A program made the position numbers and the translations under genes. Below, one piece after another: positions 9,898 through 32,610 of a stretch of 64,000 nt of DNA. The notes under the pieces are model-generated. The model saw only the letters and a list, made by a program, of their open reading frames with translations. It was not told the origin of the DNA and did not search any database. The DNA lies in the NCBI GenBank assembly GCA_963666365.2, contig CAXXNF010000002.1:416001-480000 (forward strand), in the 5' to 3' direction. The first letter of the stretch is position 1. Every line of letters starts with the position of its first letter. This DNA is from Syntrophales bacterium (GTDB lineage: Bacteria; Desulfobacterota; Syntrophia; Syntrophales; UBA2210).

Positions 9898-10082
9898 TTT
9901 AAGGTTGCATACGGAGTTAGTCATAATTCCGCATACAATCCTGTTGGACTACGCCGCAATTCAGCGCTCCCTTATGGGGATTCAATAATGTGGCTTTGTC
10001 CTATGTTTCCATCAAAAATATCGATATGGTCCTTGATTGAATAGCGTATTTACGAAAAAGTGGGGCAAAAAAAGGCTCCTTT
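9898..10082 (-). mobile_element. Orphan end of the recombinase-IS91 unit plus its attC-like hairpin (R' lost)
   Basis: Diverged direct repeat of 22270-22452, including gttggactacgccgc and the tatgggg(g)attcaat motif. Confidence 0.85.
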
Positions 10083-12403: not shown

Positions 12404-12440
12404 AGATGTCTCCCTTTCTATTGATCGGATCTTTTCAATA

Positions 12441-12723
12441 AAAAAGCCCTATCTCTCATTTTGAGAAACAGGGCTTGATAATCAGACCATAATCCCTCCC
12501 AGGTTATAGCTGTTCGCAATCATACACATAAATTCAAGATCATGGTATCTCAGTAACTCCGTCCTTAACGTTTTGTCAAGGGATATTGCCCTTTTAATTC
12601 ATCCGATACAATCTAACCCACTTCTATCGCGACAAAATCCCACAATGTGGGAATTTGCAATCAGCATATCAACAGATAAAACCCCTCGAAGTCCAAGATA
12701 TGAGTCAACCCCTACCCTTACCC
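12441..12723 (-). repeat. ~280-bp direct repeat, copy 1 (promoter, leader hairpin, terminator, palindrome unit)
   Basis: Aligns with 24992-25265. Minus-strand TTGACA at 12574-12579, hairpin 12483-12512, terminator-like stem with U-run at 12440-12476. Confidence 0.9.
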
Positions 12724-18617: not shown

Positions 18618-19115
18618 ACATTGTTCCTATCTTGGCTTTCGCTTCTTTGCGTCTTCCTCAAGCAGTTCTTTGGTTTGGTGAAGCATATCAAGAACACCCT
18701 TAGTTGCCTCATCAAATTTATGGCCTGGACCAGTAAAGAATGGCAACAGTGGTCTCTTTTCCTGAATGGCAGCATTGACCTGGCCAACGATATTCACAAA
18801 GTAATTCTTGGCGTGAATGCGTATTTGACTTGGAGGGAACCCCCTGTTCTGGATTCCTTCTGAAATGGTTATTATGCGCAGAAGAACATTATCGCTAATC
18901 GTCTCCATCCCGGTCCATGTATTCGATGGCAATAGGTGTTGGATTGTACCATGTTTCTTTGCCTCAAGTAGAAGTTTGTATCCGTTGGACACCTCTTCTA
19001 TCAGTGCCTCGACGACAGCTACAGCGTAACCGTACGACCAACTCATCTTTCGCTTGAACGCACATTGGATTATAGCTTCCCGTCATGAACACATTTCATG
19101 ATTGGAGGATGCCCT

Positions 19116-19427
19116 ATGACACAACAAGAACGCACCGCCCACTGGTCGGCCATCGTAGAGCGGCAGATCGCAAGCGGGATGAGCGGTCTGGCCTGGTGCC
19201 AGATGCATCAGATCAATACGGCAAGTTTCTACTCCTGGCGCCGGAAACTCACTGAACCGCAAGGACAACAGGGATTTATCGAACTTGCATCCTCGACGGC
19301 CGACTATGCCGGCATTCGCATTTGCATGGGGCCGCTTCTTTCCATCGAAGTGGAACGCGGCTTCGATCCCGTTACCCTGCGCACCGTTATTGAAACGCTT
19401 CATAATGGTTCCCCATGTTCGGCCTGA
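19116..19427 (+). CDS. tnpA: IS66 accessory protein TnpA
   Basis: SGMSGLAWCQMHQINTASFYSWRRKL HTH; first gene of the IS66. Confidence 0.85.
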   Translation: MTQQERTAHWSAIVERQIASGMSGLAWCQMHQINTASFYSWRRKLTEPQGQQGFIELASSTADYAGIRICMGPLLSIEVERGFDPVTLRTVIETLHNGSPCSA

Positions 19428-19756
19428 CAGCATCGGCACGCATCTATCTTTATCGCAGCCCCTGCGACATGCGCAAGTCCTTCGACGGCCTGTGCGGCAT
19501 TGTCCGCGCCGAACTTAGCGCCGATCCCCTTTCGGGATCACTCTTCGTCTTCGTCAACCGGCGGCGGAACATGGTGAAGCTCCTGTACTGGGACAGCGAC
19601 GGCATGGCCATCTGGCTGAAACGTCTGGAGCAGGGGTCCTTCGTGCTGCCTTCCCGGCAGTCCCGCGACGGTCATATCGAGCGCCGGGATCTGGCCATGC
19701 TCCTTGAGGGAATCGTGCCGAAAAAAGTGGGAAAACGGTACAAAATATGTGCATAA
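19415..19756 (+). CDS. tnpB: IS66 accessory protein TnpB
   Basis: DMRKSFDGL, LFVFVNRRR and KRLEQGSF motifs. Confidence 0.95.
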   Translation: MFGLTASARIYLYRSPCDMRKSFDGLCGIVRAELSADPLSGSLFVFVNRRRNMVKLLYWDSDGMAIWLKRLEQGSFVLPSRQSRDGHIERRDLAMLLEGIVPKKVGKRYKICA

Positions 19757-19808
19757 AAAATAATATAAACACTTGACATTATTATAGTTATGTGCTATAC
19801 GCCCGCTC

Positions 19809-21419
19809 ATGATATTGACGGAAGCACAAGAGATTATCGACCGAAAAGATGCTGCCTGGATTCTGGAATTTGCCGCCCAAAAGGATGCCCAGATCGAAGC
19901 GCTTACCCAGAAGCTCGAATCCGCCCAGCGCCAGTTGACCACCCTGCAGCATCAGATGGAACAGCTGCTGAAACGGCTCTACGGCCGCAAGTCCGAAAAG
20001 ATCAACCCCGGTCAGCTGATGTTCGACGACATGGTGCTTCAATCATTAGAGCAGAATGCGGCGGTGAAAGCACAGTTCGAAGACGCTTCTGCCACAGAGA
20101 CTGTCAAGAAGCCCCGCAAGGCCTCCCGGCATCACGGCCGGGTTCCCATTCCGGAGCATCTCGAACGGGTGGAGATTCTGCTGGACGTGCCCGAGGATGA
20201 AAAGATCGATGCGGACACGGGCGCACCCCTGAAGGTCATTTCCGTGGAAGTCTCGGAGAAGCTGGAATACCGGCCGGGGAGACTGATCGTCAACGTCTAC
20301 AAGCGGCCCCAGTATGCGCTGCCGGAGGCATCGGAATCTACCGCCGGCGTCATCGCCGCCTCGCTGCCCGATCACCCCATCGCCAAGTGCAAAGCCGACG
20401 TGGGGCTGCTTTCTCATCTGATCGTCAGCAAGTACGCCGATCATCTGCCTCTCTACCGACAGAACAGCATTCTGGAGCGGGAAGGAGTGGACATTCCCCG
20501 GGCCACCCAAACCAGCTGGCTCATGCAGGTCTATGAGAGCATTCGTCCCTTGGAAACAGTGCTTCAAAAGGCCGTCCTTGAGAGGGACGTGCTCTTTACC
20601 GACGATACGCCCGTTCCTCTGCAGGTCAAGGGAAACGGCAAGGTAAAGAAGGCCCGTCTCTGGGTCTATCTGCGGGGCGGTCCGGGACCGCCGCTGACGG
20701 CCTATGACTTCTCCATTGATCGGAGCAAGACGCGCCCACTGGAGTATCTCAATGATTACCAGGGGTACGTCCATGCCGACGCCTACGGCGGCTACGACGA
20801 ACTTTTCAAAAAAGAAGAGATTATCGAAGTGGGTTGCTGGGCCCATACCAGACGGAAGTTCGACGAGGCGGTTTCATCGCGTCCTCAAGAGGCCACGGAC
20901 ATCCTTGCCCGCATCGCCCGGCTCTATCACGAGGTGGAGACCCCCTGTGCCGAGATGACGCCCGAGGAGCGGCGCCGTTTCCGGCAGGCGCATGCAACGC
21001 CGCTGCTTGAGGGAATCTTTGCAAAGATTGAGGAACTGAGGCCCCGGACGACGCCCTCGGAGCCGTTGCGGACGGCCATCAACTACGCCCTGAATCAGCG
21101 GGAGGCGCTCTGCCGCTATCTGAAAGACGGACGGTTAAGACCCGACAACAACCTGGCGGAAAACGCCATTCGGCCCATAGCGGTAGGTCGAAAAAACTGG
21201 CTCTTCGTGGGCAGCGAACGGGGCGGCCGGGCGGCGGCCCTTTATATGGGTCTCGTTCAATCTTGCAAAAACTGCGACGTCAACCCCTGGGAGTACTTTG
21301 ACGACATGCTTCGGCGGATCATGAGCCATCCCGTAAACCGCCTGCGGGAACTGCTTCCCGATCAGTGGAAGCCTGTGCCCAGGGATGAACGGGGCCTGAT
21401 CATCCAGGGAAAACAATAA
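19809..21419 (+). CDS. tnpC: IS66 DDE transposase TnpC
   Basis: KYADHLPLYRQ, CWAHTRRKF and DNNLAENAIRPIAVGRKNWLF motifs. Confidence 0.97.
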   Translation: MILTEAQEIIDRKDAAWILEFAAQKDAQIEALTQKLESAQRQLTTLQHQMEQLLKRLYGRKSEKINPGQLMFDDMVLQSLEQNAAVKAQFEDASATETVKKPRKASRHHGRVPIPEHLERVEILLDVPEDEKIDADTGAPLKVISVEVSEKLEYRPGRLIVNVYKRPQYALPEASESTAGVIAASLPDHPIAKCKADVGLLSHLIVSKYADHLPLYRQNSILEREGVDIPRATQTSWLMQVYESIRPLETVLQKAVLERDVLFTDDTPVPLQVKGNGKVKKARLWVYLRGGPGPPLTAYDFSIDRSKTRPLEYLNDYQGYVHADAYGGYDELFKKEEIIEVGCWAHTRRKFDEAVSSRPQEATDILARIARLYHEVETPCAEMTPEERRRFRQAHATPLLEGIFAKIEELRPRTTPSEPLRTAINYALNQREALCRYLKDGRLRPDNNLAENAIRPIAVGRKNWLFVGSERGGRAAALYMGLVQSCKNCDVNPWEYFDDMLRRIMSHPVNRLRELLPDQWKPVPRDERGLIIQGKQ

Positions 21420-21726
21420 TCAGTGCACCGTATTCCGGCGGTTGAATCCCGTAATCATATTATCAAAGAGCACCGGCTGTACCGGTTTTAGGTACAGCGT
21501 ACTTCATGTAAAATTCTTTTGCTATATGAGTTGGTCGTACGCTTACGCTACAGCAAGTTTTGAATCTTTCCGCTTCGTTCGATTGTCGTTTCTTAGCTCT
21601 TTCCATTGTGATAACAGAAATCCAACTGCCACGCCTGCTAGAGGTGCAAATACCTTGGAATTCACAATGTCCAGTGACCACTGGAGGATGATCTTCAACA
21701 ATTCCATTTTCTCCCGGTCCTTATGT

Positions 21727-21801
21727 CGCTAACGACGCGGTTAAGTGGGCGGCAAAGGAGCGAAGCGGATTTGCTGATCCATCTTCAACCGCTTGTTCGG
21801 A
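21727..21801 (-). other. attC-like recombination site (75 bp)
   Basis: R'' TCCGAAC lies 1 nt after the stop codon; R' GTTAGCG; gcggttaagtgggcggcaaa pairs with tttgctg(a)tcca(t)ctt(c)aaccgc. Confidence 0.9.
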
Positions 21802-21802
21802 A

Positions 21803-22243
21803 TTACTTAGCTTCCATTTCAGCAATTGCCTTCTTGTAAGCTTCCACCATTAATGTTTGAAGATGTGGCATGGCATCTGCCATGTATTGTCCGAATTTGG
21901 TCATGGCTGATTTACCTATGGAGGAACCATAGAAATTAGCCAGCGCATTCAGCTCGGCAGCGGTAAAATGCCTGACCAAAACATCCTTAATTATATCGGT
22001 GAGTTTCTCCAAATCGAGGTGTTTCGTCATCAAGCGTATGAATGGTCTTCGTTGTTCTTCGGGAAGCCGCACAGACATTCTTGTTACCATATCAGTGATC
22101 ATGTCCTTTGGCGGCATTACGGTTAGATAACGGTCGGCCTCCGATAGTCTGTTCTGTAAAGTGTCTTCGATTGCCTTGGTTTGAGCAAAGGCAATAGAGG
22201 ACAGGACTATCACGGCTATAATAGAAAAAACGAGTTTTCTCAT
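21803..22243 (-). CDS. DUF2059-like exported protein (cassette gene)
   Basis: Signal peptide and HFTAAELNALANFYGSSIGK motif. The cassette starts GTTCGGA, the exact complement of its own R''. Confidence 0.85.
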   Translation of the reverse strand: MRKLVFSIIAVIVLSSIAFAQTKAIEDTLQNRLSEADRYLTVMPPKDMITDMVTRMSVRLPEEQRRPFIRLMTKHLDLEKLTDIIKDVLVRHFTAAELNALANFYGSSIGKSAMTKFGQYMADAMPHLQTLMVEAYKKAIAEMEAK

Positions 22244-22261
22244 GACTTCCCTTTCCATTTT

Positions 22262-22321
22262 TCCGAACATTTAAGGTTGTATGCGGAGTTAGCCATAATT
22301 CCGCATACAATCCTGTTGGAC
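22262..22321 (-). other. attC-like hairpin site closing the recombinase-IS91 unit (60 bp)
   Basis: R'' GTCCAAC ... R' GTTCGGA; stem aggttgtatgcggagtta / taattccgcatacaa(t)cct. Confidence 0.7.
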
Positions 22322-22585
22322 TAAGCCGCAACTCGGTGTTTCCCTATGGGGATTCAATAACGCGGCTTCGTCCTATTTTTCCATTAAAATATCGATATGG
22401 TCATTGATTGAATAGCGTTTTTACGAAAAAGCCCGGCAAAAAATGCTCCTTTGTTGCTGTGAGCGCTGTTGATGCTGCCTTCGGTGGCGTGGATGTTGAG
22501 ACATATCTCCGAAAAGGGCGCACAGATCCGACGCAATCTTTTGGTGTTCCGATATTCGACTGCAATCATTGATCAACATCCCTTT

Positions 22586-23770
22586 CTATGGAGGCCACCT
22601 ACCGGTTTGTGACAGAAGAACCTCCTTCCGCACCATGATTCCCTTGCCGCAATGGGGGCATATCCGAAGATCAACGCCGGTCACCCGGAGGAATGTCTCT
22701 TCCCAGGGTTCTTTGGGGGAATCATTTTTCTCTGCCTGTTCCGGTATGCCGAGGAGCTTTTTGCACTGAGCAAGCTTTCTCTTTCGGTTCCGGTTGCTCA
22801 GCAGTCCGTAATAGCGGATCTTCATGAACTGATCGGGGAGAATGTGCAGGAGAAAGCGGCGGATGAACTCGAAGGCGTCGAGGGTCATGAGCTTGGTCTT
22901 GCCTTCCTTTGACGGATCGCGCACTCGGAAGGTAACATCGCGGGGGCCTATCCTAACAATTCTGTCGTTCGAGATGGCCACACGGTGGGTGTAGCGACCG
23001 AGATACTCGATGACATGTTTTGCGCTTCTGAAGGGTTCCTTGCAGTAGACAACCCACTCTTTGCGATAAAGATCGGCAACGAACTGTCGAAAGGTCGCCC
23101 GTTCCTTTAGGGCCTCGATCTTGCCGGGGAATCTCAGATCGGCTGCTTCGTAGGCTTTTTTGAGATAGTGAAGAAACTTACCCCGAAAGAGCCGGGAAAG
23201 AACCTTGACCGGCAGGAAGTAGTCCTCCTTCGCCGGAATCCATCGCTCCCCGTCAAGGGAAAGTCCGCCGCCTGTCACGATGCAGTGAACATGGGGATGA
23301 TCGATCAGGCTCTGCGACCAGGTGTGCAGGATGGCAATGCAGCCGATCTCAGCACCCAGATGACGATGATCGCGGGAAAGATCCATGATGGTCTCGGAGG
23401 CGGCCTTGAAAAGTATGTGGTAGAGGGTCTTCTGGTTCCGCAGGGCCAGCGGTCGAAGTTCCTGGGGAATCGTGAAAACGATATGCACGTAGGAAATGGG
23501 CAGCAAGTCCTTTTTTCTTGCCTCCAGCCACAGCTCTCGCTTCAGTCCCTGGCATTTGGGGCAGTGGCGATTCCGGCAGGAGTTGTAGGAGATCCGAACG
23601 GCACCGCAATGGTCGCATTCATCCACATGTCCGCCAAGCGCGGCGGTCCGGCATAGTTCAATGGCTCGCATCGCCCGGTGGTGTCGTCCGGCCATTCTGC
23701 CGCCATGGATATCTCGATAGGCCTCCCCAAATTCACGGAAGACCTGGGCCACTTCCGTGGTTCCACGCAT
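22586..23770 (-). CDS. IS91-family rolling-circle (HUH/Y2) transposase
   Basis: Zn-binding CRNRHCPKC, HUH motif HPHVHC, YLGRY and EFIRRFLLHILP. Confidence 0.95.
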   Translation of the reverse strand: MRGTTEVAQVFREFGEAYRDIHGGRMAGRHHRAMRAIELCRTAALGGHVDECDHCGAVRISYNSCRNRHCPKCQGLKRELWLEARKKDLLPISYVHIVFTIPQELRPLALRNQKTLYHILFKAASETIMDLSRDHRHLGAEIGCIAILHTWSQSLIDHPHVHCIVTGGGLSLDGERWIPAKEDYFLPVKVLSRLFRGKFLHYLKKAYEAADLRFPGKIEALKERATFRQFVADLYRKEWVVYCKEPFRSAKHVIEYLGRYTHRVAISNDRIVRIGPRDVTFRVRDPSKEGKTKLMTLDAFEFIRRFLLHILPDQFMKIRYYGLLSNRNRKRKLAQCKKLLGIPEQAEKNDSPKEPWEETFLRVTGVDLRICPHCGKGIMVRKEVLLSQTGRWPP

Positions 23771-23784
23771 GAAACGGCGACCCG

Positions 23785-24639
23785 CTAAAGAACGCTGTCC
23801 CGCGAGGCGGCGATCACGTCGAGGGGATTGGCGATCCGTTCAAAGTCCTTTCGAGAGAGGTGGAGGTAAACGGCCGTAGTCTTGGGGCTGGCGTGCCCCA
23901 GAAGCCGCTGTATGTGGTACAGGTCCGCCCCGTTCTCCAAGAGATGGGTGGCAAAGCTGTGGCGCAGGGTATGGACGCTCCCCGCTTTCCTAACGCCCGC
24001 TCTGAGCAGCGCATCTTTAAAGGCTTTCTGGACGCTTGACACTGAAAGAGGCGACCACTTGTCTTTGCCGAAGAAGAGCCAGTTCACGGGATGGCACTGC
24101 GACCAGTAAAACCGCAGTTCTTCCAGGGTCCGTTTGGCCAGCAGGGTGTAGCGGTCTTTGTTTCCCTTCCCCTGGCGTATGCGAATCACCATGCGTTCGC
24201 TGTCGATGTCGGACACTCTCAGATGCACGGCTTCATTGAGCCGCAATCCTCCCGAGTAGATCGTCATGAGAATGGCCCGATGCTTCAGATTGCCGACGAC
24301 CGAAAGAACGGCCCGCACCTCCTCCGGCGAAAAAACCGCAGGTAGGCTCTTTTGTTTCTTCGCACGAGGTATCCGGTAGGAGATCCAGTCGCGCTTCAAT
24401 GTCGTCTCATAGAAAAACTTCAGGGCGCTGTAAGTCTGACTCACCGTTGACTGAGAAGCCTTCTTCTCTTCGATGAGATAGTGAAGATAGGTCTTGATCT
24501 CTTCTTCTCCCAACGTCTCCGGCGACGCCCCAAAGTGACGCACAAATCTGCGCATGTGCTCCAGATAGCATTCCCGCGTCCTCCGGCTGAGGTGGCGCAG
24601 CTCCATATCGCGTTTCATCTGATCGCGCAGTCTTCCCAT
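23785..24639 (-). CDS. Tyrosine recombinase with N-terminal SAM-like domain (IS91-associated; not IntI)
   Basis: GLRLNE, QGKGNKDR, HTLRHSFATHLLE and LGH..PKTTAVY; lacks the IntI-specific insertion before box II; AGGAG RBS. Confidence 0.92.
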   Translation of the reverse strand: MGRLRDQMKRDMELRHLSRRTRECYLEHMRRFVRHFGASPETLGEEEIKTYLHYLIEEKKASQSTVSQTYSALKFFYETTLKRDWISYRIPRAKKQKSLPAVFSPEEVRAVLSVVGNLKHRAILMTIYSGGLRLNEAVHLRVSDIDSERMVIRIRQGKGNKDRYTLLAKRTLEELRFYWSQCHPVNWLFFGKDKWSPLSVSSVQKAFKDALLRAGVRKAGSVHTLRHSFATHLLENGADLYHIQRLLGHASPKTTAVYLHLSRKDFERIANPLDVIAASRDSVL

Positions 24640-24773
24640 ATCTTTTCTCCTTTCTTGCATGAATGATGAATCATCCTTACAAAAAGAAGAACGATCAGGA
24701 CAGCAACAATGTACGCTATTCAATTGTCAAAGAACGACCATTTTTACTTAAAATACCGCCGCGTAGCGGCTTA

Positions 24774-24937
24774 GTTCAACTATTGTTTATACAGTTTCTG
24801 TGTAAATCCTTTACATAGCTGATTCAGCTATGTAATACATATTTTAATTGCGTTAAAAATCTTTATAAGTTGCTGCAATAAATAGGATATTGTGAAATTC
24901 GTCATTTATTTGAGTGTTTTATACAGAAACTGCGTAA
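24774..24937 (-). other. attI-like site heading the cassette array
   Basis: Minus strand ctgtataaacaata-GTTGAAC; 17/20 inverted repeat (24787-24806 / 24918-24937); perfect palindrome with 12-bp arms at 24811-24835. Confidence 0.5.
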
Positions 24938-24991
24938 TACACCTTTCCGGTATGACTATCGCAATATTGATCTGAGCTGACCACCAAAAAC

Positions 24992-25265
24992 AAAAGCCCT
25001 CTCTCATTTTGAGAAACACGGCTTCGATGATCAGACCATAATCCCCCCTTGGGTTATAGCTGTTTCAATTCAAGATCGGCAAGGTATGTTAATCAGTAAC
25101 TCTGTTAATGACGTTTTGTCAAGGGATATTGCCCTTTTAATTCATCCGATACAATCTAACCCACTTCTATCGCGACACAATCCCACAATGTGGGAATTTG
25201 CAATCAGCATGTCAACAGATAGAACCCCTCGAAGCCCAAGATATGAGTCAACCCCTACCTTACCC
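24992..25265 (-). repeat. ~280-bp direct repeat, copy 2
   Basis: Aligns with 12441-12723; minus-strand TTGACA at 25117-25122 faces the array. Confidence 0.9.
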
Positions 25266-25344
25266 CTCAGAGTTTGGTTTCTTTCCTGGCACCCCCCTAA
25301 AACACCCACGCCAGAGCAAAGGAAAGGGTATATGAGATATGGCG

Positions 25345-25551
25345 CTACGGTTTGCGGTAGGGCATGTGAAGATAAAGGGGGCAGTCCGGTATGTCGCAAT
25401 CAACACGCCCGTCGATATAGTAGCCCGAGCACTCGCAGCATTTTGCAAGGATCGCCTGTTTAAAACTGAGTCGCTGTCCCGCGTGATGCTTCAAAAGCTC
25501 GCGTTTTCCCTTAGCTCTGGGCGCTTTTTCAACGTTTTCGATGTGCTTCAT
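25345..25551 (-). CDS. Small Cys-rich (putative Zn-binding) phage-type protein
   Basis: AILAKCCECSG...DCDIPDCPLY; overlaps the stop of the upstream gene. Confidence 0.7.
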   Translation of the reverse strand: MKHIENVEKAPRAKGKRELLKHHAGQRLSFKQAILAKCCECSGYYIDGRVDCDIPDCPLYLHMPYRKP

Positions 25552-25814
25552 TTCGCCCCACCTTCAGCAAGTTTGCGAAGGAGCTCTTTTTGATTTCGAT
25601 AATCGGCCGAGAGAATTTCAAGAGTTATGTCATCGTGCCGCCACTTTCGCCCGTCTTTTCTGGGGAAGCGTTCGTCGAAATCCTCGCACAGGATATCGTA
25701 TAGCTCGGCGTCCGACATCTGTTCCACCGGATTTGCCCCTGGAGGCTTTAGCTTCTCTTCGAGTTTCGCGAGTCTGTTTTTATTGTCTTTCATTCTCCCT
25801 CGCCTCTCTTTCAT
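25548..25814 (-). CDS. Hypothetical protein of the satellite-like element
   Basis: Tightly coupled operon layout; start uncertain. Confidence 0.6.
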   Translation of the reverse strand: MKERRGRMKDNKNRLAKLEEKLKPPGANPVEQMSDAELYDILCEDFDERFPRKDGRKWRHDDITLEILSADYRNQKELLRKLAEGGAK

Positions 25815-26004
25815 TCAGCCGTTTTTCAAGTGTGGTTATTCTGTCCTCTATTTCCGAATCTGCGAGGATTTTATGAAGTATTGACACGAGATAGCCGAGT
25901 TTACCGGCTGTCGCAGCATCCACTTCGCCACTGTCTAGCCGGTTAACCAGCCCCGAAAGATATCGCCGCACATCGTTCAGATTGTTTAATCGCTTCATTG
26001 TCAC
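25780..26004 (-). CDS. Small helical hypothetical protein of the satellite-like element
   Basis: 74 aa ending in a coiled coil (EIEDRITTLEKRL); start uncertain. Confidence 0.7.
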   Translation of the reverse strand: MTMKRLNNLNDVRRYLSGLVNRLDSGEVDAATAGKLGYLVSILHKILADSEIEDRITTLEKRLNEREARENERQ

Positions 26005-26125
26005 CGCCTTTTTACTCTTTTTTGTATGCTAAAGTGACTCTAAGGCCATGTTTTTGTTGTAAAAGGTGAGCTGTACCCCCTCTCTCTTTTACGCGAATGC
26101 TTCCACAACTTCAGGTCAAGCAAGC

Positions 26126-26917
26126 TCATAACACCGCCCGGATGCTCGAATATCGTTTTGGAAATTCAGTAATCGTTTCGCGCTCCGAAAAAACCCACTC
26201 AATTACTTCCGGATCTACCCCTAACGCTGCAACATCCATTGCAAACTTCATGGGGTTCGCGTCATATATCTTGAATAACTTACCCCAACCCAGGCAAAAG
26301 CGATTGAACTCATCAAATTTAGGAAGATCGGCCTTGATTTCGTTTAGCGCCCGCCCAAGATTGCGTTCCGCACGTATCAATTTTATCGCCGCCTCATTTT
26401 GCAGTTCTTTTAGGCGATCAACGATTTGCTTGACAATTCTGATTTGCTCATCTCTGGGAAGGGTATCATCTAGGTCATCTAGCTCTTTCCTCAGCGCCTC
26501 AATCTCTGACCGCACATCATCATAATGCGCCGATTTTTCACCCTCATCGTGGCTAAGTAGCTTATAGGCGCTTGTCAAATCGGAAACTGTTTCCGTTTTC
26601 AGCCTGTCACGCTCTCGATAAAGCCGCATATAACTACGCGCCGTCCGTGGCGTAAAAGGCAAATTGCCTTCAATCCACTTTTCAAATTCTCCGTGCTGAA
26701 GTTCAGACTTTGCAGACAGAAGCAGCTCTCCGATCCTGATTGCATCGGCAAGGGCATTTTTCATATATCCGCCGACTTGTTCATGAAGATGAATAATGGC
26801 GGCAACTCTTTCTTTCTGGCTCAGCTCACTGTCAAGGTTCGCCGCCTGCATAGCTTCTTTCGTGCCGCCTCTGTCATACACTTCCTGAATCTTGTTTGCT
26901 CTGCTCTGCTCATCCAT
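26126..26917 (-). CDS. DUF3102-like HTH protein carrying an internal DNA palindrome
   Basis: AIRIGELLLSAKSELQHGEFEKWIEGNLPFTPRTARSYMRLY. KTETVSDL is encoded across the palindrome cggaaac-a-gtttccg (26581-26595). Confidence 0.8.
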   Translation of the reverse strand: MDEQSRANKIQEVYDRGGTKEAMQAANLDSELSQKERVAAIIHLHEQVGGYMKNALADAIRIGELLLSAKSELQHGEFEKWIEGNLPFTPRTARSYMRLYRERDRLKTETVSDLTSAYKLLSHDEGEKSAHYDDVRSEIEALRKELDDLDDTLPRDEQIRIVKQIVDRLKELQNEAAIKLIRAERNLGRALNEIKADLPKFDEFNRFCLGWGKLFKIYDANPMKFAMDVAALGVDPEVIEWVFSERETITEFPKRYSSIRAVL

Positions 26918-27107
26918 TGTTCTGCTCTCCTTTGGGTCTGCTCTGGTGTCCTAGCTTTAGGGTTTTGGATAGGAAAGAAAGTCTATAATGAGACTTTCTT
27001 CCTATTCCCCAAAAACCCCCTATGCGGTTTAGGACATAGGCCGAATAGGACAGAAATTTCCGTCTATGGGAACCAGTCCCCGATCGGCCGCATTTCGGCG
27101 CCTCCAA
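26910..27107 (-). CDS. Possible small hypothetical protein
   Basis: Fills the gap between the primase and the DUF3102-like gene; weak evidence. Confidence 0.25.
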   Translation of the reverse strand: MEAPKCGRSGTGSHRRKFLSYSAYVLNRIGGFWGIGRKSHYRLSFLSKTLKLGHQSRPKGEQNNG

Positions 27108-28671
27108 TCAATTTGTAATGCCTTTTCAGGCCTCGAGGGTTCCGTGAATTCCGCCATGCTTTGCAATCAATGATCTTTATACGGTTTGCCCTCGTTTCTG
27201 GTTCCCAGTCTAAGGCAATATACAGGCGCGCCTTTTCACGTGAGAAATCAGCGCCCCTTCCAACGTCCTTTCCGTCGGCCTTTTGCAACCCCAGGAATGC
27301 TATTCCTTTCCTCAATTTGTCATGAATAGCACCAATCGTTAAGGCAATTTTAGAGAAGTCCTCTGCGATTTCGAGGAAGTCAACGATCCATATTGCATCT
27401 GAGCCATCAATGAAGTCCGCTGGCATCTGACTTGATTTCAGGTTGTACACCCTCATGTGACTTGCCCACTCTTCAAGTTGTGTATCTTTGAAGGCCTGCA
27501 GACGCTTTCGCATCTCATTTGCGCCCATTTCGGAATTCAGGTAAACTACTCGGCGACGCCCCAGGTTCAAATGAGCCAAGTTTAGAAGGAATGCAGTCTT
27601 TCCCGCCTCCTTGCTTCCGGCAACAACGGCAATGTTTCCGGGGTATAGAATCCCCTGCTCTGCAAGGCCCAGTGGCAAAGCAATGTCGTATTCCTTCCCG
27701 TCGGCGCTGAGAAAGTCCATTTCTTCAAAATCCTTGTCAACGCGCCGGTAAACACCCGCCTGCTTTCCATACTTTTCGATGAGCCCCTCTTCCTTGAGCC
27801 GGTGAAAGATAACCCTGATCTGCCGTTTCTCTTCCGGTGAAACGCTTTGAAACTCTCTGTGACACTCTGAAACGTTTATGAAACCCTCTTGAAACGTCAG
27901 CCAGTCACGAACCTGCTCAACAAGATTTCCATCACGCCGCTTTGCACGCTTCAATGCACTGTCAATTTTTGCATTTACTTCGCTTATCGGGAACGGTGGA
28001 TTGCATGAAAAAGCAAGTCGTTGCAATATGTTAGTGGTTAGCTCTGTTTGACATCCGCCTTTGACGAGGCAGCTCGCAATGTGAAAAAGGGTGTCATCCC
28101 GCCGCCCTTCCATGAAACGCTCTGAAACGTCTGAAACGCTTTGAAACGTAGGTGTTTCATGCCCCTTATATTTTAATTTATTTAATAAGGCATCGGGGCA
28201 CGGTGCAGGTGCAGTCTCGTGAATGCTCAGTCCTTCAAGCCACTGGTACGCCTTGCCTGTCCCATTCACAGAAGGCGGTGCGATCACGTAGCCCCCGTCC
28301 CCACGCACATCAACACCAGGGATAATGCCCGTCGCATTGCCGATGCTCTGGCCCGGAGGCATGGCGAGGTAAATGTGGTACCCCCTGGGCGTTTTTGCAA
28401 TAGCGGTGATAAACGCATCGGGCAACAGCTCCTGAATGCGCTGGTATGCTTCCTCGTTATCGCAATCGACGACGAACACCCCTGATATTGCGCCGGTCAC
28501 AACCCCGATCATCGCATTGGGCCATCGCGTCCACCAATCTTGCAGCTCCTCTGCTGTCGCTTGTCTGCTCTGGTACTGTTCCCATTTGATGAACGGGCTC
28601 TTGTCGGGCCGCACAGGGATCACGGAAAATCCCCTTCCGTTGTATTGCAAGGCTGAATCGATCATATTCAT
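27064..28671 (-). CDS. Bifunctional primase-polymerase with PriCT and RecA/AAA-type helicase domain
   Basis: Prim-Pol motifs VFVVDCD, TPRGYHIY and DVRGDGGYVIAPPS; PriCT-like EGRRDDTLF; Walker A GSKEAGKT. Confidence 0.9.
   Translation of the reverse strand: MNMIDSALQYNGRGFSVIPVRPDKSPFIKWEQYQSRQATAEELQDWWTRWPNAMIGVVTGAISGVFVVDCDNEEAYQRIQELLPDAFITAIAKTPRGYHIYLAMPPGQSIGNATGIIPGVDVRGDGGYVIAPPSVNGTGKAYQWLEGLSIHETAPAPCPDALLNKLKYKGHETPTFQSVSDVSERFMEGRRDDTLFHIASCLVKGGCQTELTTNILQRLAFSCNPPFPISEVNAKIDSALKRAKRRDGNLVEQVRDWLTFQEGFINVSECHREFQSVSPEEKRQIRVIFHRLKEEGLIEKYGKQAGVYRRVDKDFEEMDFLSADGKEYDIALPLGLAEQGILYPGNIAVVAGSKEAGKTAFLLNLAHLNLGRRRVVYLNSEMGANEMRKRLQAFKDTQLEEWASHMRVYNLKSSQMPADFIDGSDAIWIVDFLEIAEDFSKIALTIGAIHDKLRKGIAFLGLQKADGKDVGRGADFSREKARLYIALDWEPETRANRIKIIDCKAWRNSRNPRGLKRHYKLIGGAEMRPIGDWFP
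27838..28188 (+). repeat. Iteron-like TGAAAC repeats and AT-rich tract inside the primase gene (putative origin)
   Basis: Six copies at 27838-27896, four at 28113-28148, one inverted at 28154-28159, then an AT-only tract at ~28166-28188. Confidence 0.6.
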
Positions 28672-28916
28672 ATTGCACCACCTTTTCGCAACTCGGATCG
28701 TAGCACTTTCTCTACCTTCTCGGGCGTTTCGGAATCGTTGCAGCATCGCTGGCATAGGCAGTAGCGAATTAGTCGCGTTTTATCCTCAACCCCGCCGTAC
28801 GCTGCGGGTTCGTCAGGCAGAAAGACGCCGATCACCGCCGCGGCACCGCCGCAAATGAGACATGAATCGCCATCCCGCGGGTGCTTCATCAGTTCGAGGG
28901 CCTCATTCGTCGTCAT
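28668..28916 (-). CDS. Zn-finger-like hypothetical protein
   Basis: CLIC...CLCQRCC; ATGA overlap with the primase. Confidence 0.7.
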   Translation of the reverse strand: MTTNEALELMKHPRDGDSCLICGGAAAVIGVFLPDEPAAYGGVEDKTRLIRYCLCQRCCNDSETPEKVEKVLRSELRKGGAI

Positions 28917-29055
28917 GATCTTCCGCGTCTCCTTTGCTAAAGGCTGTGAACATTCGGTCGCTTATCGCTTGCAGGCGAGCAGCCTCGACGTCGCTCGCCG
29001 CTTCTATATAAATCTGTTCGGGCGTCATCTGCTCGTCGAAACTGAATAATATCAT
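28903..29055 (-). CDS. Small hypothetical protein (50 aa, below the ORF-track cutoff)
   Basis: MILFSFDEQMTPEQIYIEAAS...; fills the operon gap and follows a GGAG RBS. Confidence 0.5.
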   Translation of the reverse strand: MILFSFDEQMTPEQIYIEAASDVEAARLQAISDRMFTAFSKGDAEDHDDE

Positions 29056-29059
29056 ACGT

Positions 29060-29257
29060 TTATCCATTGTTTTCGCCCTCCAAGATTTTCTTGATGTCGG
29101 CGAGCGGCCAGAGCAGCCGGCGGTTTGGTAATTTCACGGGTTTAATTTTTAAATAATGTCCATTGATGCAGAGTCCCCTCCGCATGGTTTCATCTTCGAC
29201 GCCCAGCATCGGCGCAGCTTCCCTTGTCGTAATGTGTGTTATCCGATTTCGTTCCAT
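29060..29257 (-). CDS. AlpA/excisionase-like DNA-binding protein
   Basis: ITTREAAPMLGVEDETMR...PVKLPNRRLLWPLADI. Confidence 0.8.
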   Translation of the reverse strand: MERNRITHITTREAAPMLGVEDETMRRGLCINGHYLKIKPVKLPNRRLLWPLADIKKILEGENNG

Positions 29258-29420
29258 CCCAGCACCCCCTTTTTCAGTTGATTTGACAACTATGTCTGAA
29301 TTTGGACGGAAGAAATCTTCCGTGCGACGGAAGAAACGGGGAAGAAGTTAATTAAATCGGGATGTTAAAAAAAATAAAGCCGATGAAAAAAAAGTCCACC
29401 GGCTTCAAAGAAAGGAAAAA

Positions 29421-30611
29421 TCAGGATATGATGAGCCATGCAATTGAGGCAGTATATCTTAAGCCATAGCCGCCGTCAGCAACGATGTGTTTATTAAAAT
29501 GTTCGGAGAGTTCGGGTAGTCCAGCTTTTATGTTTTTAAAACTTGCAGTAAGGGCTTTTTTTACGTTTGACTGTGCTTTCTTGGCATTTGGGTCGATCTT
29601 TTTTTCTGGCAACCCCTTCAGTTTTCGCATCATTACGTCAATTTCTTCATCAAATTCGCGCCGCTCAAAGTCGGAATCGACTTTCTCTTTCTCGGCGATG
29701 AGCTGCCGCAATTGCCTCCCCAATGCGTCGCGGCTTTCGTCGGTAAGTTCTTCAGATATACCACCAGATTTATGCAACCCTTCTGCAAGCGCCTGTGAGT
29801 CAGAGATTGCGTCGTTTTGATTAGGGTTATATAATCGATAGAGTTCCAGGCACGAGACAGATTGGCCAATCCGGTTTGGTTCCAAAAGATAAGAGATATA
29901 CCGAATCCCAGCCAAATCTTTAACAGTTGTTAGCTTGCCATCGAAGCTGATTTCCCAGTATTGACCGCATCGCTTTAGGTAGTTCCCGCTGATGTTAACC
30001 TCAACGCTCTCATCTCTTTTTTTCTCTAGGTCCCCGGGGGGTTCCGCCCCGTACAGGATTATGTGCGGTTCGTCAAGCATTACGCCCCGGTTTCCCTCGG
30101 CCAAACGTCTTGTGAAAAATATCCATTCTTTTTTATAATCGGCTCCCGGAGGGTTAAGGTAAATATCTGCGAATCTGGCGTCCATAAGTGCGAGGTACGA
30201 ATCTCTATTTTTGATCGTTTCGGAGCATTCCAGAAAATCGTAAATCGTGGTTTTCTGTGATTTCAACTGCGCGATATGCTCATTTGCGCCCTCGTACAAC
30301 TGTGCCTGAAGCGGGTGAAGTTCGCTGGTTTTCCCGTAGAGCTTTTTTTGAATCATGCGCAACTCGGCGTCGGTGCCCCCCCGTTCGACGGCTTCCTGTA
30401 AAGGGTATTCAAACGGTTTTTCCTCACCGATATCGAAGACAACGCAATATTTTACCGGGTGCTGCAAATGCCTTACCTCTGCGTAGGGGCTTGAATAGTT
30501 GTGAAGTGTAATGCTCTCAACAGTAGCAAAGTCATTGCACTTCTCGGCCCACCTCCGTGCGTACATTTCAAGCAGTTCTATCTTGAAGGGAAATTGATTC
30601 TTGTTGTCCAT
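29421..30611 (-). CDS. Hypothetical protein, possible regulator
   Basis: 396-aa ORF with RBS, between the integrase region and AlpA. Confidence 0.7.
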   Translation of the reverse strand: MDNKNQFPFKIELLEMYARRWAEKCNDFATVESITLHNYSSPYAEVRHLQHPVKYCVVFDIGEEKPFEYPLQEAVERGGTDAELRMIQKKLYGKTSELHPLQAQLYEGANEHIAQLKSQKTTIYDFLECSETIKNRDSYLALMDARFADIYLNPPGADYKKEWIFFTRRLAEGNRGVMLDEPHIILYGAEPPGDLEKKRDESVEVNISGNYLKRCGQYWEISFDGKLTTVKDLAGIRYISYLLEPNRIGQSVSCLELYRLYNPNQNDAISDSQALAEGLHKSGGISEELTDESRDALGRQLRQLIAEKEKVDSDFERREFDEEIDVMMRKLKGLPEKKIDPNAKKAQSNVKKALTASFKNIKAGLPELSEHFNKHIVADGGYGLRYTASIAWLIIS

Positions 30612-30614
30612 TGC

Positions 30615-30699
30615 GTATCCCCCCGCAATTATCCCAGGTTGTGAAGGGGCAGCCGGTGGGATATGTCCGGTCTTCGGGTAGCTTGCCCTATCCCCTTCA
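30615..30699 (-). ncRNA. Candidate structured cis-regulatory RNA
   Basis: Closing stem tgaagggg/ccccttca with two internal hairpins; the loop auauccca is complementary to downstream ugggaua and to the RBS region ggggaua. Confidence 0.45.
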
Positions 30700-30717
30700 G
30701 TCTTATTGTTTTGACTG

Positions 30718-31266
30718 CTACAAAAACACCTTGTAGCTGATGTTCAGTGCCTTCCCTAGGCGCTTTGCCATTTCTTTCCCTATGGGACGTTTCCCGTTTT
30801 CCATTTCGCTGATATGCCGCTGCGGAATGCCGGTCAGTTCAGAGAGCTGAACCTGCGTCAATCCTTCCCGGTAACGTGCGCCAGCAAGCGCCTTACCGGT
30901 AAGCTCTTGTTTGGAACACTCCGGGTAAGCGTCTCGCCAAGGTGCTGCGTTCCCTGAATCATCTGATGTATCCCGACGAGACAACGTAGCTTCCACCTTT
31001 TCGGGAGGTGACCCTGGGTAATACTCGGTCTCCCACACCGGTTGAGGAACTCTCAGACCTTCTTCCGTTTTCGGATATGTTACCGATCGCTGTTTCTTCA
31101 TATGGGCGAATGCCTTTCGAAAGTAGGCGTTGTCTTCTTTCTTCTCTTGCCTTAGCTGCTCGATTTCGGAGGGTGTCAGCGTCTCGGAAACCGATGATGT
31201 ATCCAGCTTCCGCCGCAGTGAGGGTGCCTGGTTCGAATGCGGAACTTCCTTTGATTTCATGTCCAA
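30718..31266 (-). CDS. XRE-family HTH regulator (antitoxin-like C-terminus)
   Basis: GARYREGLTQVQLSELTGIPQRHISEMENGKRPIG. Confidence 0.8.
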   Translation of the reverse strand: MDMKSKEVPHSNQAPSLRRKLDTSSVSETLTPSEIEQLRQEKKEDNAYFRKAFAHMKKQRSVTYPKTEEGLRVPQPVWETEYYPGSPPEKVEATLSRRDTSDDSGNAAPWRDAYPECSKQELTGKALAGARYREGLTQVQLSELTGIPQRHISEMENGKRPIGKEMAKRLGKALNISYKVFL

Positions 31267-31275
31267 TCCTCCTTT

Positions 31276-32610
31276 TTAGCCTCCTGCTACTTCCTCAAAC
31301 CGAATCACCTTCTTTTCTTCCTCGCCGCTGGTGATTTTCTTTAAATACCGCTCCCACTTCACCAGAGCGGCCCTTTTCTCTTTTGTGTATTCGTGCCGGT
31401 CATAATGAACGGCCTGTACTCCACTGATACCGTGACTTAAAAGCTGCGCTCGTATATCGCGGTTTATACCCATGCCGGCCAGCATGGTTTCACAGGTGCG
31501 CCGGATATCGAGAAGGTTGAAGGCCTCGCCGCCCATAGCGGTGGATATTTCTGTTACTCGCTTTCCCGGGTAACTGAGATTGATTACAGTGTTCACCGCT
31601 GAGGGAAAAAGCAGGGTTACGCCCTTGGCTTCAGAACGCTTCACAAGTCCGTCAACAATGCCAGCGGCAATTGGCGCAAGAGGCAACAGATGTTCTCGTG
31701 GGCTTTTTCTCTTGCCTTTGGGGTCAGTGAGTCTGAGGGTTTTTGTTTCTTCGTTCCAGTCGGTAACCTCTACTCGTAACAGTTGAGCCATTCTTTGGCC
31801 GCCTGCATAAAGGGTGATCCTTAACGTTTGGTCGATAAGATCATCGTTCAGGGATTCAATGTACTTCTTCAGTTCTTCCCTTGTGAGCGTTCGATTCCTC
31901 GCTTTAACCGGAATAGTGGGCACTACTGTGACGGGATTTGATTCAACATCGAAGGGAATGAAAGAAGAGGGCAAGGCAGCCGATACGGGGGCTTTCATCG
32001 CGCAGTTGTACGCTGCTGCCAGATACGACCTGAATGAACCCGCCGTTCGTTCTTTCCCCGCTTCCATGACGCGCCTCACCAACTTAGCGGCTTGCTTCGG
32101 TGTAATATCTCTCGCCGGTGTACCTGCAAGGTCCGGATCGGCTTCCGTTAAGTGGCACTTTGTAGCTGAACGAACAGCCCCCGCGTAAATGATTTTTCCC
32201 TGCGCATCGCAATATTTTGCGTATTCTTCCATCAAAGCCTTGAGGGTGTATTTTTTGCTTGCTTCGGCTTCCTTCTTGGCGGCCTCATCCGCTGCTTTTT
32301 TCACAGCTCTTGCTTTTTCCTGCTTCTTTTCCACTTCTCGGGGGTCAATGCCTTTATCCAACAAGGCTTGAAGGTGCCGCGCCTCTTTCCGTGCATCTTC
32401 AATGGTCCAGTCACCGCACTTTCCAATTGTCCTACGAATCGTTGTACGGTTTAACTTACCCTCAAAGACAAAGGATTTTACTCCCGCTGCTGTTACTCTT
32501 ACAGCTAAGCGCGTAGCGTCAGCGTCCCAAGTAAACGATTGTTGCTTGTCGGCCGGGCATTGAATAGCTTTGATTCGATCAAGGGTGAGTCTGATTCGTT
32601 TCATGACCAC
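31276..32610 (-). CDS. P4-type tyrosine integrase with arm-binding domain
   Basis: N-terminal LAVRVTAAGVKSF...TIG...ARKEA; catalytic GQR, DIRRT, LLSH and HYDRHEY; adjacent to the tRNA fragment. Confidence 0.92.
   Translation of the reverse strand: MVMKRIRLTLDRIKAIQCPADKQQSFTWDADATRLAVRVTAAGVKSFVFEGKLNRTTIRRTIGKCGDWTIEDARKEARHLQALLDKGIDPREVEKKQEKARAVKKAADEAAKKEAEASKKYTLKALMEEYAKYCDAQGKIIYAGAVRSATKCHLTEADPDLAGTPARDITPKQAAKLVRRVMEAGKERTAGSFRSYLAAAYNCAMKAPVSAALPSSFIPFDVESNPVTVVPTIPVKARNRTLTREELKKYIESLNDDLIDQTLRITLYAGGQRMAQLLRVEVTDWNEETKTLRLTDPKGKRKSPREHLLPLAPIAAGIVDGLVKRSEAKGVTLLFPSAVNTVINLSYPGKRVTEISTAMGGEAFNLLDIRRTCETMLAGMGINRDIRAQLLSHGISGVQAVHYDRHEYTKEKRAALVKWERYLKKITSGEEEKKVIRFEEVAGG

Follow-up and report, generated by a model that had tools for sequence, protein, structure and literature searches.

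An IS91-family element with an IntI-like recombinase and a predicted attC-like junction of its ends

What moves a transposable element that encodes both an HUH transposase and a tyrosine recombinase? The question is raised by a two-gene unit on the minus strand of a 64,000-nucleotide stretch of a Syntrophales bacterium genome (contig CAXXNF010000002.1, positions 416,001 to 480,000), here called the window. An earlier sequence-only reading of the window had taken the unit for an IS91-type element bounded like an integron cassette. Comparison with a second copy in the same genome and with relatives from many phyla makes it rather likely that this is an intact member of an IS91 subgroup with an IntI-like recombinase, and that it moves as a single-stranded DNA (ssDNA) circle which its own recombinase integrates by an integron-like single-strand reaction, like a self-sufficient cassette. 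The parts of the element are collected in Table 1.

The pairing of a recombinase gene with an IS91 transposase gene, already named in the sequence-only reading, was confirmed by Pfam and NCBIfam profiles. In profile searches the transposase scored 465.3 bits against NF033538 (cut-off 125) and matched Y2_Tnp (1e-63) and Zn_Tnp_IS91 (4.4e-31). Its gene is intact, HVH and YLGRYTHR can be read in the translation, and the HUH-Y2 enzyme with its N-terminal zinc-binding domain belongs to the IS91 family.

The best NCBIfam model for the recombinase is TIGR02249 "integron integrase" at 216 bits, below the cut-off of 265, and the XerA model comes second with 211 bits. The match to TIGR02249 falls into two stretches that skip profile positions 178–238, and the recombinase is 33% identical to the true IntI found beside a relative of the element (locus L018), with one 34-aa gap where IntI has its special insert (the I2 region). 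Among solved structures the best match is VchIntIA 2a3v (145 bits), followed by XerA (116 bits) and XerD (81 bits). The catalytic R-K-H-R-H-Y residues are present, as GLRLNE, GKGNKDR, HTLRHSFATH, LLGH and AVYLH align with the IntI motifs. On two counts, the TIGR02249 cut-off and the IntI-specific additional domain, the protein falls outside IntI proper; these comparisons place it closest to IntI, as an IntI-like enzyme without the IntI-specific insert. A classification of tyrosine recombinases recognizes an "integron-like" subgroup whose insert is "not fully conserved", in an account of the subgroup that leaves IS91 unmentioned (PMC8138268).

The ends of the element could be read from its copies. 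The host genome (2 contigs, 4.0 Mb) contains a second copy, copy B (C2:1855361-1857878), which is 99.3% identical to the one in the window. Both match from (G)TTGAAC through a hairpin to ...CCTTAAATG(TT), their flanks differ beyond these points, and unitigs of the source-run assembly also break at 22266 and 24780. The start at (G)TTGAAC beside an attI-like site had thus been placed correctly in the sequence-only reading, with the boundary at G↓TTGAAC (↓ marks the crossover). Its end at GTCCAAC had not, since the sequence shared with copy B runs on through the hairpin. Of the cassette-like bounds it is therefore the start with TT(GAAC) and the end with ...G before a target TT that stand, but not the end at GTCCAAC.

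Relatives were collected by scanning one genome per species with the recombinase, which gave 80 loci in many phyla, and an independent second set comprised 79 metagenome loci. The family is found in Desulfobacterota, Planctomycetota, Acidobacteriota, Latescibacterota, Burkholderiales and on Clostridia plasmids. Ends were mapped in nine sets of copies within single genomes, leaving out one pair of 75% identity (L037/L052). In eight of the nine sets, from several phyla, the left boundary reads x↓TTG(A/G)ACTAA(A/C/G)CCGC followed by a small hairpin, and the right part consists of the ori motif, 20–30 nt, an inverted copy of the left end, 3–4 nt, a hairpin with a conserved stem and 9 nt, with the boundary before TT. 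In the remaining set, from Paraburkholderia, the left boundary falls within a rearranged 5' part, and this set was excluded. Of 82 sequences, 76 carry the left motif and 61 the inverted copy, and the hairpin stands 9 nt from the boundary in 60 of the 67 hits to the R'' motif.

In the window, the inverted repeats of the sequence-only reading, GTTGAACTAAGCCGC (24780-24766, minus strand) and GCGGCTTAGTCCAAC (22329-22315), do match at 14 of 15 positions. With at most two mismatches this 15-mer has three matches in the window against 0.10 expected, and none of 100 shuffles reached three; the third match is part of a decayed solo right end at 9898-10082. The ori motif ATTGAATCCCCATAG (22358-22344) likewise lies where it had been seen, in the loop between GGACGAAGCCGC (22373-22362) and GCGGCTTAGTCC, and the hairpin GGATTGTATGCGGA...TCCGCATACAACC follows at 22313-22275 on the minus strand. 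The element itself ends at R↓TT repeats and not at the IS91-type ori motif, which agrees with the early proposal that its ends are GTT repeats rather than oriIS. At one related locus (L032:2653-2760) the last ~15 nt of the right end are duplicated in tandem (GAATCTTATTCATT twice).

With TT on both sides of the element, the junction can be read as x↓TT or xTT↓. The left TT is always kept, and the right one is replaced at five sites, by AA (L051), AT (L092), TA (L072), CT (L031) and GT (L071); the target of L072 is a perfect palindrome, the other arm of which shows that the target itself had TA. Because the left TT is constant and the right TT varies at these five sites, we read the element as TTGRAC...R and the cut in the target as lying between x and TT, the same as the integron G↓TT. 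A group of metagenome loci begins with ATGAAC, GTGAAC or CTGAAC and shares upstream sequence (...tggcaag↓); their true left end therefore lies further left, and they were dropped from the flank counts. A sister subfamily (L126-L148 and other metagenome loci) has the left box ATGAACGAAACCGC and ~45 nt further upstream in common, up to this same ...tggcaag, so that its left end, too, must be elsewhere.

The hairpin and GTT could in principle be host features, such as a terminator or a repeat of the repetitive extragenic palindromic (REP) type, that an ordinary insertion sequence has hit by chance. A solo copy of the hairpin without the element at C2:558281-558341 and the fact that several targets are host palindromes would fit this, but the hairpin accompanies the element in both copies, in a 108-bp mini-unit and in all families, with a conserved stem and a fixed distance of 9 nt to the boundary, and the inverted repeat is far above the shuffle expectation. 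Coincidence of this kind is hardly credible. The mini-unit is a tandem repeat of the last 108 bp of the element directly behind copy B (C2:1855253-1855360). It starts with TTGGACGAAGCCGC, where the element reads ATAGGACGAAGCCGC at the same internal place, and ends with ...AAATG↓TT; a contig from the run of a second organism (X3) also holds only this mini-unit. The solo copy is a perfect palindrome, AACATTTAAGG-[element hairpin]-CCTTAAATGTT, in which the spacer and GTT of the element are mirrored on the left side. An attI-like motif directly precedes it and a gene starts 25 nt behind it; the palindrome may stem from snap-back synthesis or aberrant recombination.

In a junction of the two ends, 15 bp (stem P1) can form between the inverted copy (…GTYCAAY) and RTTGRAC…; the hairpin P2 stacks on P1, and ~6 nt remain unpaired on one side only. 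The boxes at the junction conform to RYYYAAC and GTTRRRY; as in attC, the crossover is found beside the bulge, one base pair inside P1. The unit also has the make-up of a gene cassette, with G↓TT bounds and a 3' attC whose R' is completed by the first bases of the unit itself. In 29 distinct end combinations the non-Watson-Crick cells of P1 read A·C on the top strand and G·T on the bottom in 46 cases, G·T on the top strand in 2, both from one spurious row, and otherwise in 12; for P2 the numbers are 58, 13 and 32, respectively. The bottom strand folds better in all 40 distinct junctions (mean −4.75 kcal/mol with DNA energy parameters; Wilcoxon p = 3.6e-8). The strand-biased mismatches support a folded single-strand form, and the junction site is built to fold on the bottom strand. 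A bottom-strand circle is described as the functional intermediate of IS91 itself (PMC13181058).

Cassette-type extrahelical bases are absent. The P2 stems are gapless, with a recurrent A·C (top) or G·T (bottom) pair at stem position 12. The likeness to integron cassettes and the attC x attI reaction thus covers the G↓TT bounds, the R''/R' boxes RYYYAAC/GTTRRRY and the two-stem bottom-strand fold with an unpaired centre, as well as, in some copies and relatives, location at attI or attC, tandem arrangement and movement together with an adjacent cassette. The element differs from cassettes in that it encodes its own recombinase, which has no IntI insert, together with an ssDNA-making enzyme, and in that its stems are conserved in sequence without extrahelical bases and its bulge is one-sided (0–1 nt vs 6 nt).

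The target was examined at 47 distinct genome sites, after L048 (wrong left motif) and L077 (two R'' hits) had been dropped. TT follows the element at 41–45 of the 47 sites, and the next base is mostly A, then T or G. The right flanks begin with TTAT (12 sites), TTAG (10), TTGG (5), TTCG (4) and others, and do not follow the GTTC/CTTG tetranucleotide rule of IS91. On the left, ATAA stands exactly 6 nt from the crossover at 14 of 47 sites and 7 nt from it at 3, while all 34 other spacings together total 6. Flanks read by eye, rather than tallied by script, show that a left arm CTAA goes with TTAG and ATAA with TTAT; the target is therefore an inverted repeat around a 6-nt centre, with MTAA-N6-↓TTAK as the common motif. 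By the same reading, A or C at −10 on the left tends to accompany T or G at +4 on the right in inverted-repeat fashion, and several sites (e.g., L083 and L055) have perfect arms of 7–11 bp. The target base x equals the last base R of the element at 37 of 47 sites, namely in 24 of 25 G-type and 13 of 18 A-type elements (Fisher p = 7.8e-8). The metagenome set repeats the rule, with x = G in 35 of 37, TT in 23 of 26, and TAA at a spacing of 6–7 in 14 of 37. A tyrosine recombinase would be expected to use such a site, with two arms around a 6-nt centre, a cut at the edge of that centre and a match required at the first swapped base. This differs from what is known of IS91 targets. A search for empty sites in 40 relatives, using the right flank, gave only two ~40-nt matches and no empty site. 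Palindromes that start exactly at the crossover (e.g., TTATGTGGAGCTCCACATAA and TTATGCGGATCCGCATAA) were seen in the right flanks of L060, L076, L072, L169, L120 and L161, from unrelated bacteria. Their arms resemble the stem of the element's own hairpin. Relatives may have left them behind as solo hairpins, or they may form a landing-site class of their own.

Could the HUH transposase account for all this alone? In plain IS91 rolling-circle transposition it would cut both ends and the target, the hairpins would be ori and ter signals, and the recombinase would be an accessory for multimer resolution or regulation, as Orf121 is in IS91. The element does resemble the IS91 family (IS91, IS801, IS1294/IS1294b and their ISCR relatives) in its HUH-Y2 transposase, here with an intact gene, in the build of its terIS (a tetranucleotide, then 3 nt, then a hairpin), in its conserved ori motif and in the lack of a target duplication. 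The left end, GAAC/GGAC followed by 3 nt and a hairpin, is exactly like that of IS1294-like elements, where flank↓GAAC-CAC-hairpin corresponds to TT-GAAC-TAA-hairpin in the present family, i.e., the canonical terIS after two extra bases. IS91-family ori ends with one or two subterminal palindromes, and short-word targets without duplication, have also been described (PMC13181058).

Several features separate the present family from these elements. Two IS91 and two IS1294-like copies from plasmids, used as the canonical comparison set, carry neither a recombinase nor an extra right-end module, and their ori motif TTCCTAT lies 4–8 nt from the right end; here the ori motif lies about 76–130 nt inside, and a module of ~90–130 nt (R'' box, hairpin and spacer) is added at the right end. 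All plasmid transposases at least 45% identical to the one in the window (from Clostridium, Rhizobium and Sulfitobacter) have a recombinase upstream, and those at most 33% identical do not; the add-on module and the recombinase thus go together. Moreover, the boundary is displaced by 2 nt to the left of the canonical ter nick, outside the ter word, and the right end is not followed by GAAC/CAAG. The target is x↓TT in MTAA-N6-TTAK or in attI/attC instead of the GTTC/CTTG of IS91, and its two-armed inverted repeat with a 6-nt centre, in which x covaries with R, fits strand swapping by a tyrosine recombinase. Insertions at the crossover points of attI and attC, and passenger DNA on the ori side that ends at an attC (L025/L026, see below), where one-ended transposition of IS91 takes DNA from the ter side, also speak against the transposase acting alone, and we consider this explanation unlikely.

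Six relatives lie beside an intI gene, at distances of 85–450 nt from it, i.e., in the attI position. In Latescibacterota (L018) a true IntI of 338 aa, with 464.6 bits against a cut-off of 265, stops 182 nt ahead of the element in the same orientation, and in Burkholderiales (L088) a divergent IntI (357.6 bits) starts about 140–163 nt from it, with three TGTCAACTA repeats between. L082 has the N-terminal 202 aa of a divergent IntI (268.2 bits) 153 nt away, cut by the contig end. The other three are metagenome loci, for which IntI-like matches were found by tblastn with the L018 IntI only: L154 (53% identity, divergent, about 400 nt), L147 (54% identity, about 85 nt after the stop) and L159 (68% identity, 182 nt after the stop). 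Where at least 300 nt of left flank were available, these make up 3 of the 45 loci from genomes and 3 of the 24 sites from metagenomes. In addition, copy B follows, at a distance of 161 nt, an intI remnant that consists of the last ~35 codons (...TTMIYTHVLNRGGKGVKSPVDDL and stop).

Two further relatives are inserted at the G↓TT of a canonical, strongly folding attC with an exact R'' box, namely the second copy in the Latescibacterota genome (L017; 93 nt, GCCTAAC) and L038 (90 nt, GCCCAAC). R'' candidates occur upstream of 7 of 45 sites; only these two are exact and strongly folding, and the other five were not counted. The unit common to L025 and L026 comprises the element and an adjoining 173-nt stretch with an attC-like site of its own, at whose G↓TT the stretch ends. 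This is what joint excision of two cassettes would be expected to give, and the extra DNA is on the ori side, unlike IS91 read-through, which carries DNA from the ter side. Head-to-tail arrays were found in L118, L178 and at copy B.

The left flank of the window copy ends ...CTGTATAAACAATAG↓, and those of L018 and L159, behind true intI genes, end ...CTGTATAA(tt/gt)AATAG↓, with the same ...CTGTATAAnnAATAG↓ preceding the element. Similar flanks are found in L031 and in a metagenome contig (X4, 97% identical, reading ...TTTGTATAAAGTTTG↓), and the upstream half of the flank (24902-24937 onward) resembles the sequence after the intI stop codon at copy B. As the flank resembles those of L018 and L159 behind intI as well as the sequence after the intI stop at copy B, "attI-like" is a fair name for it.

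Such sites raise the question whether the unit is instead a passive integron cassette or an exploiter of Xer, moved by the host's IntI or XerCD through its attC-like site, with its own genes serving other ends. The tandem junction of copy B does pass a simple attC scan (GTCCAAC...GTTGGAC, 60 nt, −18 kcal/mol), relatives sit at attI or attC beside host intI genes, and the MTAA-N6-TTAK core resembles dif-type sites. Yet several multi-copy genomes, such as an Isosphaeraceae assembly with nine copies, have no intI within 4.5 kb of any copy, the recombinase gene is intact and linked to the module across phyla, and the present host has two copies of 99% identity but only fragments of intI. No intact intI was found in this genome, where none of 17 matches to TIGR02249 exceeds the cut-off. 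Passive movement is thus distinctly improbable.

The intI fragments of the host match the C-terminal third of TIGR02249 (Table 1), and the genome seems to carry several decayed integron platforms. An inverted-repeat scan of the whole window found no attC-like array, only the hairpin of the element and the attI-like repeat. A simple detector based on R''/R' boxes and fold energy found only the tandem junction near copy B in the genome and nothing in the window; as it gave many matches inside GC-rich coding DNA of the 80 loci, it was applied to single cases (L025/L026, L029 and L042) and not to counts. The suggestion that the unit is a substitute engine for an IntI-less array is unsupported, because no cassette array and no intact intI were found here.

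For movement by the element's own recombinase we propose the following steps. The HUH transposase would make or amplify a bottom-strand ssDNA circle. Only in the circle or in a tandem junction (RTT↓GRAC) would the canonical nick site TT↓GRAC be rebuilt beside the right end; since no GRAC stands behind the right end unless the two ends are joined, the transposase may act mainly on circles or tandems, like on a rolling-circle replication origin. The circle junction would fold into an attC-like site, the IntI-like recombinase would exchange one strand with the target at AA↓Y on the bottom strand (R↓TT on the top strand), and replication would resolve the product, as for attC x attI. The first circle might leave the chromosome either through the transposase or by excision through the recombinase. 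We infer this division of steps between the two enzymes.

A number of points weigh against such an integron-like route. The integrated right end is not followed by GRAC, which bears on how a first circle could form. Since the left end makes a good IS91 terIS, the HUH enzyme evidently acts at this end, and a divergent HUH specificity (cutting after NNAA on the bottom strand) would yield identical junctions. The recombinase has no insert of the kind that reads extrahelical bases in IntI, and P2 has no such bases; single-strand recombination can therefore not be inferred from membership in the IntI family. Because related families contribute to them, the mismatch cells do not represent independent events, although they are spread over many columns. 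No junction of right and left ends in a circle was found among the assembled contigs of four runs (X1, X3, X4 and X6). Finally, the early expectation that homologous gene pairs lie at integron sites holds for a subset, six at attI and two at attC, but not for ~60 of the 69 sites with enough flank, which have no integron gene nearby and are plain MTAA-N6-TTAK inverted repeats. Integron features were thus seen at only 8 of ~69 sites plus one remnant, and the genome of the window has neither an intact intI nor an attC array.

These elements could also be seen as autonomous cassettes with their own engine, in which HUH-made bottom-strand circles are integrated at the G↓TT of attI, attC and two-armed sites by an IntI-like recombinase lacking I2. 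They would then be a living example of a cassette forerunner and a third, enzymatically new class of integron-homing parasites, an idea that we find quite possible without calling it probable. Such an element was imagined as the forerunner of integron cassettes by Escudero et al. (PMC4792948). The same source describes CTXphi and other integrative mobile elements exploiting Xer (IMEX), the folded ssDNA site of which mimics a two-armed core with a stem free of extrahelical bases, and in which one strand is exchanged and replication resolves the product, all as proposed here. CTXphi, however, has no recombinase and uses dif only, whereas the present element has an IntI-like enzyme and many target sites per genome. 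Homing to integron recombination sites is shared with the parasitic IS1111-attC elements and group IIC-attC introns (PMC9229058), but these use unrelated enzymes (a DEDD transposase, and a ribozyme with reverse transcriptase) and are not cassette-like themselves.

We found no account of the ends, the folded junction or the target rule of recombinase-carrying IS91 members in a full-text search of the literature, and the literature searched holds no description of movement by an integron-like route with an element's own recombinase. ISSod25, ISShvi3, ISWz1 and others in ISfinder/TnPedia are IS91-family members with an upstream tyrosine recombinase and the same two-gene layout. Integron recombination, in which a folded single-stranded attC exchanges one strand and replication resolves the product, is generally regarded as almost unique, CTXphi being its sole look-alike, and its origin has yet to be settled. 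In the present case, one widespread family of transposons appears to unite an ssDNA-circle enzyme, an IntI relative without I2 and an attC-like bottom-strand fold in one 2.5-kb unit. If this is true, it would offer a tractable system for studying how single-strand recombination evolved from Xer-type enzymes, whether the I2 domain is needed for it, and how integrons are invaded and reshaped, including at attI, where new cassettes are expressed. There is also a practical side: automatic annotation labels such recombinases "integron integrase/XerA-like", attC finders may score the element junction as attC, and this can inflate counts of integrons and of attC clusters that have no integron integrase (CALIN).

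Table 1. Parts of the element in the window, and related features in the window and elsewhere in the host genome (C2).
Feature	Position	Strand	Basis
Mobile element proper, 2512 bp, TTGAAC...CCTTAAATG	22268..24779	minus	copy comparison and boundaries of relatives
Target base x (G), left of crossover	24780..24780	minus	x equals last base R of element in 37/47 sites
Target TT, right of crossover	22266..22267	minus	TT in 41-45/47 genome-set and 23/26 metagenome sites
Left-end box TTGAACTAAGCCGC, R' half of attC-like site; includes IS91-type terIS (GAAC + TAA + hairpin)	24766..24779	minus	motif TTGRACTAANCCGC in 76/82 loci
Subterminal ter hairpin GCCGC-TAC-GCGGC	24758..24770	minus	read from sequence; CCGC-NNN-GCGG kept in 8 families
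Tyrosine recombinase gene, 284 aa, ATG at 24639	23785..24639	minus	Pfam Phage_int_SAM_4 and Phage_integrase
IS91-family HUH-Y2 transposase gene, 394 aa	22586..23770	minus	NF033538; Pfam Y2_Tnp and Zn_Tnp_IS91
Internal left-end-like box GGACGAAGCCGC; start of the 108-bp mini-unit behind copy B	22362..22373	minus	copy and motif comparison
IS91-type ori motif ATTGAATCCCCATAG	22344..22358	minus	kept in most families; 76 nt from element end
R''-like box GCGGCTTAGTCCAAC, inverted copy of left end (stem P1)	22315..22329	minus	motif in 61/82 loci
Hairpin P2, conserved stem TTGTATNCGGA/TCCGNATACAA	22275..22313	minus	60/67 R''-motif hits, 9 nt before boundary
Spacer TTAAAT and last base G (R); bulge of the fold	22268..22274	minus	copy and fold comparison
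Left flank, attI-like, with two inverted TAYRCAG-NNN-CTGTATA(A) sites, of which the second ends ...CTGTATAAACAATAG↓	24781..24937	minus	inverted-repeat scan
Decayed solo right end, 88% identical, without left part or genes	9898..10082	minus	genome search
intI fragments, matches to C-terminal third of TIGR02249	C2:1858042-1858143, C2:1791625-1791738, C2:1674932-1675230		profile search
Repeated 150-450-bp module	window 24985-25426	minus	
Repeated 150-450-bp module, further copies	window 12436-12723; C2:413738-414196, 1675651-1675814, 558077-558155, 1838627-1838752		

The element sits beside IS66 copies and on the edge of an island-like stretch (window 25000-32610), which encodes a P4-type integrase (Arm-DNA-bind_3 and Phage_integrase), a helix-turn-helix protein, a primase-helicase (Prim-Pol/helicase) and a DUF3102 protein. 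At window 19083-21548 there is an IS66-family element with a 536-aa DDE transposase and small upstream open reading frames, the last ~550 bp of which recur at seven other places in the genome with 99.5–100% identity. At window 22243-22270 the last three bases of the mobile element, ATG, are in frame with a downstream DUF2059 gene. The listed open reading frame of this gene begins inside the element, and its real start is likely to be the ATG at 22243, behind GGAAAGGGAAG.

An Rfam scan of 21000-26500 at permissive thresholds gave no match. A module of 150–450 bp is repeated in the window and the genome, with a TTGACA promoter-like box, GGGGGGATTATGGTCTGA (a ribosome-binding site and a 2-codon frame) and a strong terminator hairpin. 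Three of its copies lie just upstream of the attI-like TAYRCAG-NNN-CTGTATAA motif. The module matches no Rfam family, and it looks like a family of small RNA genes.

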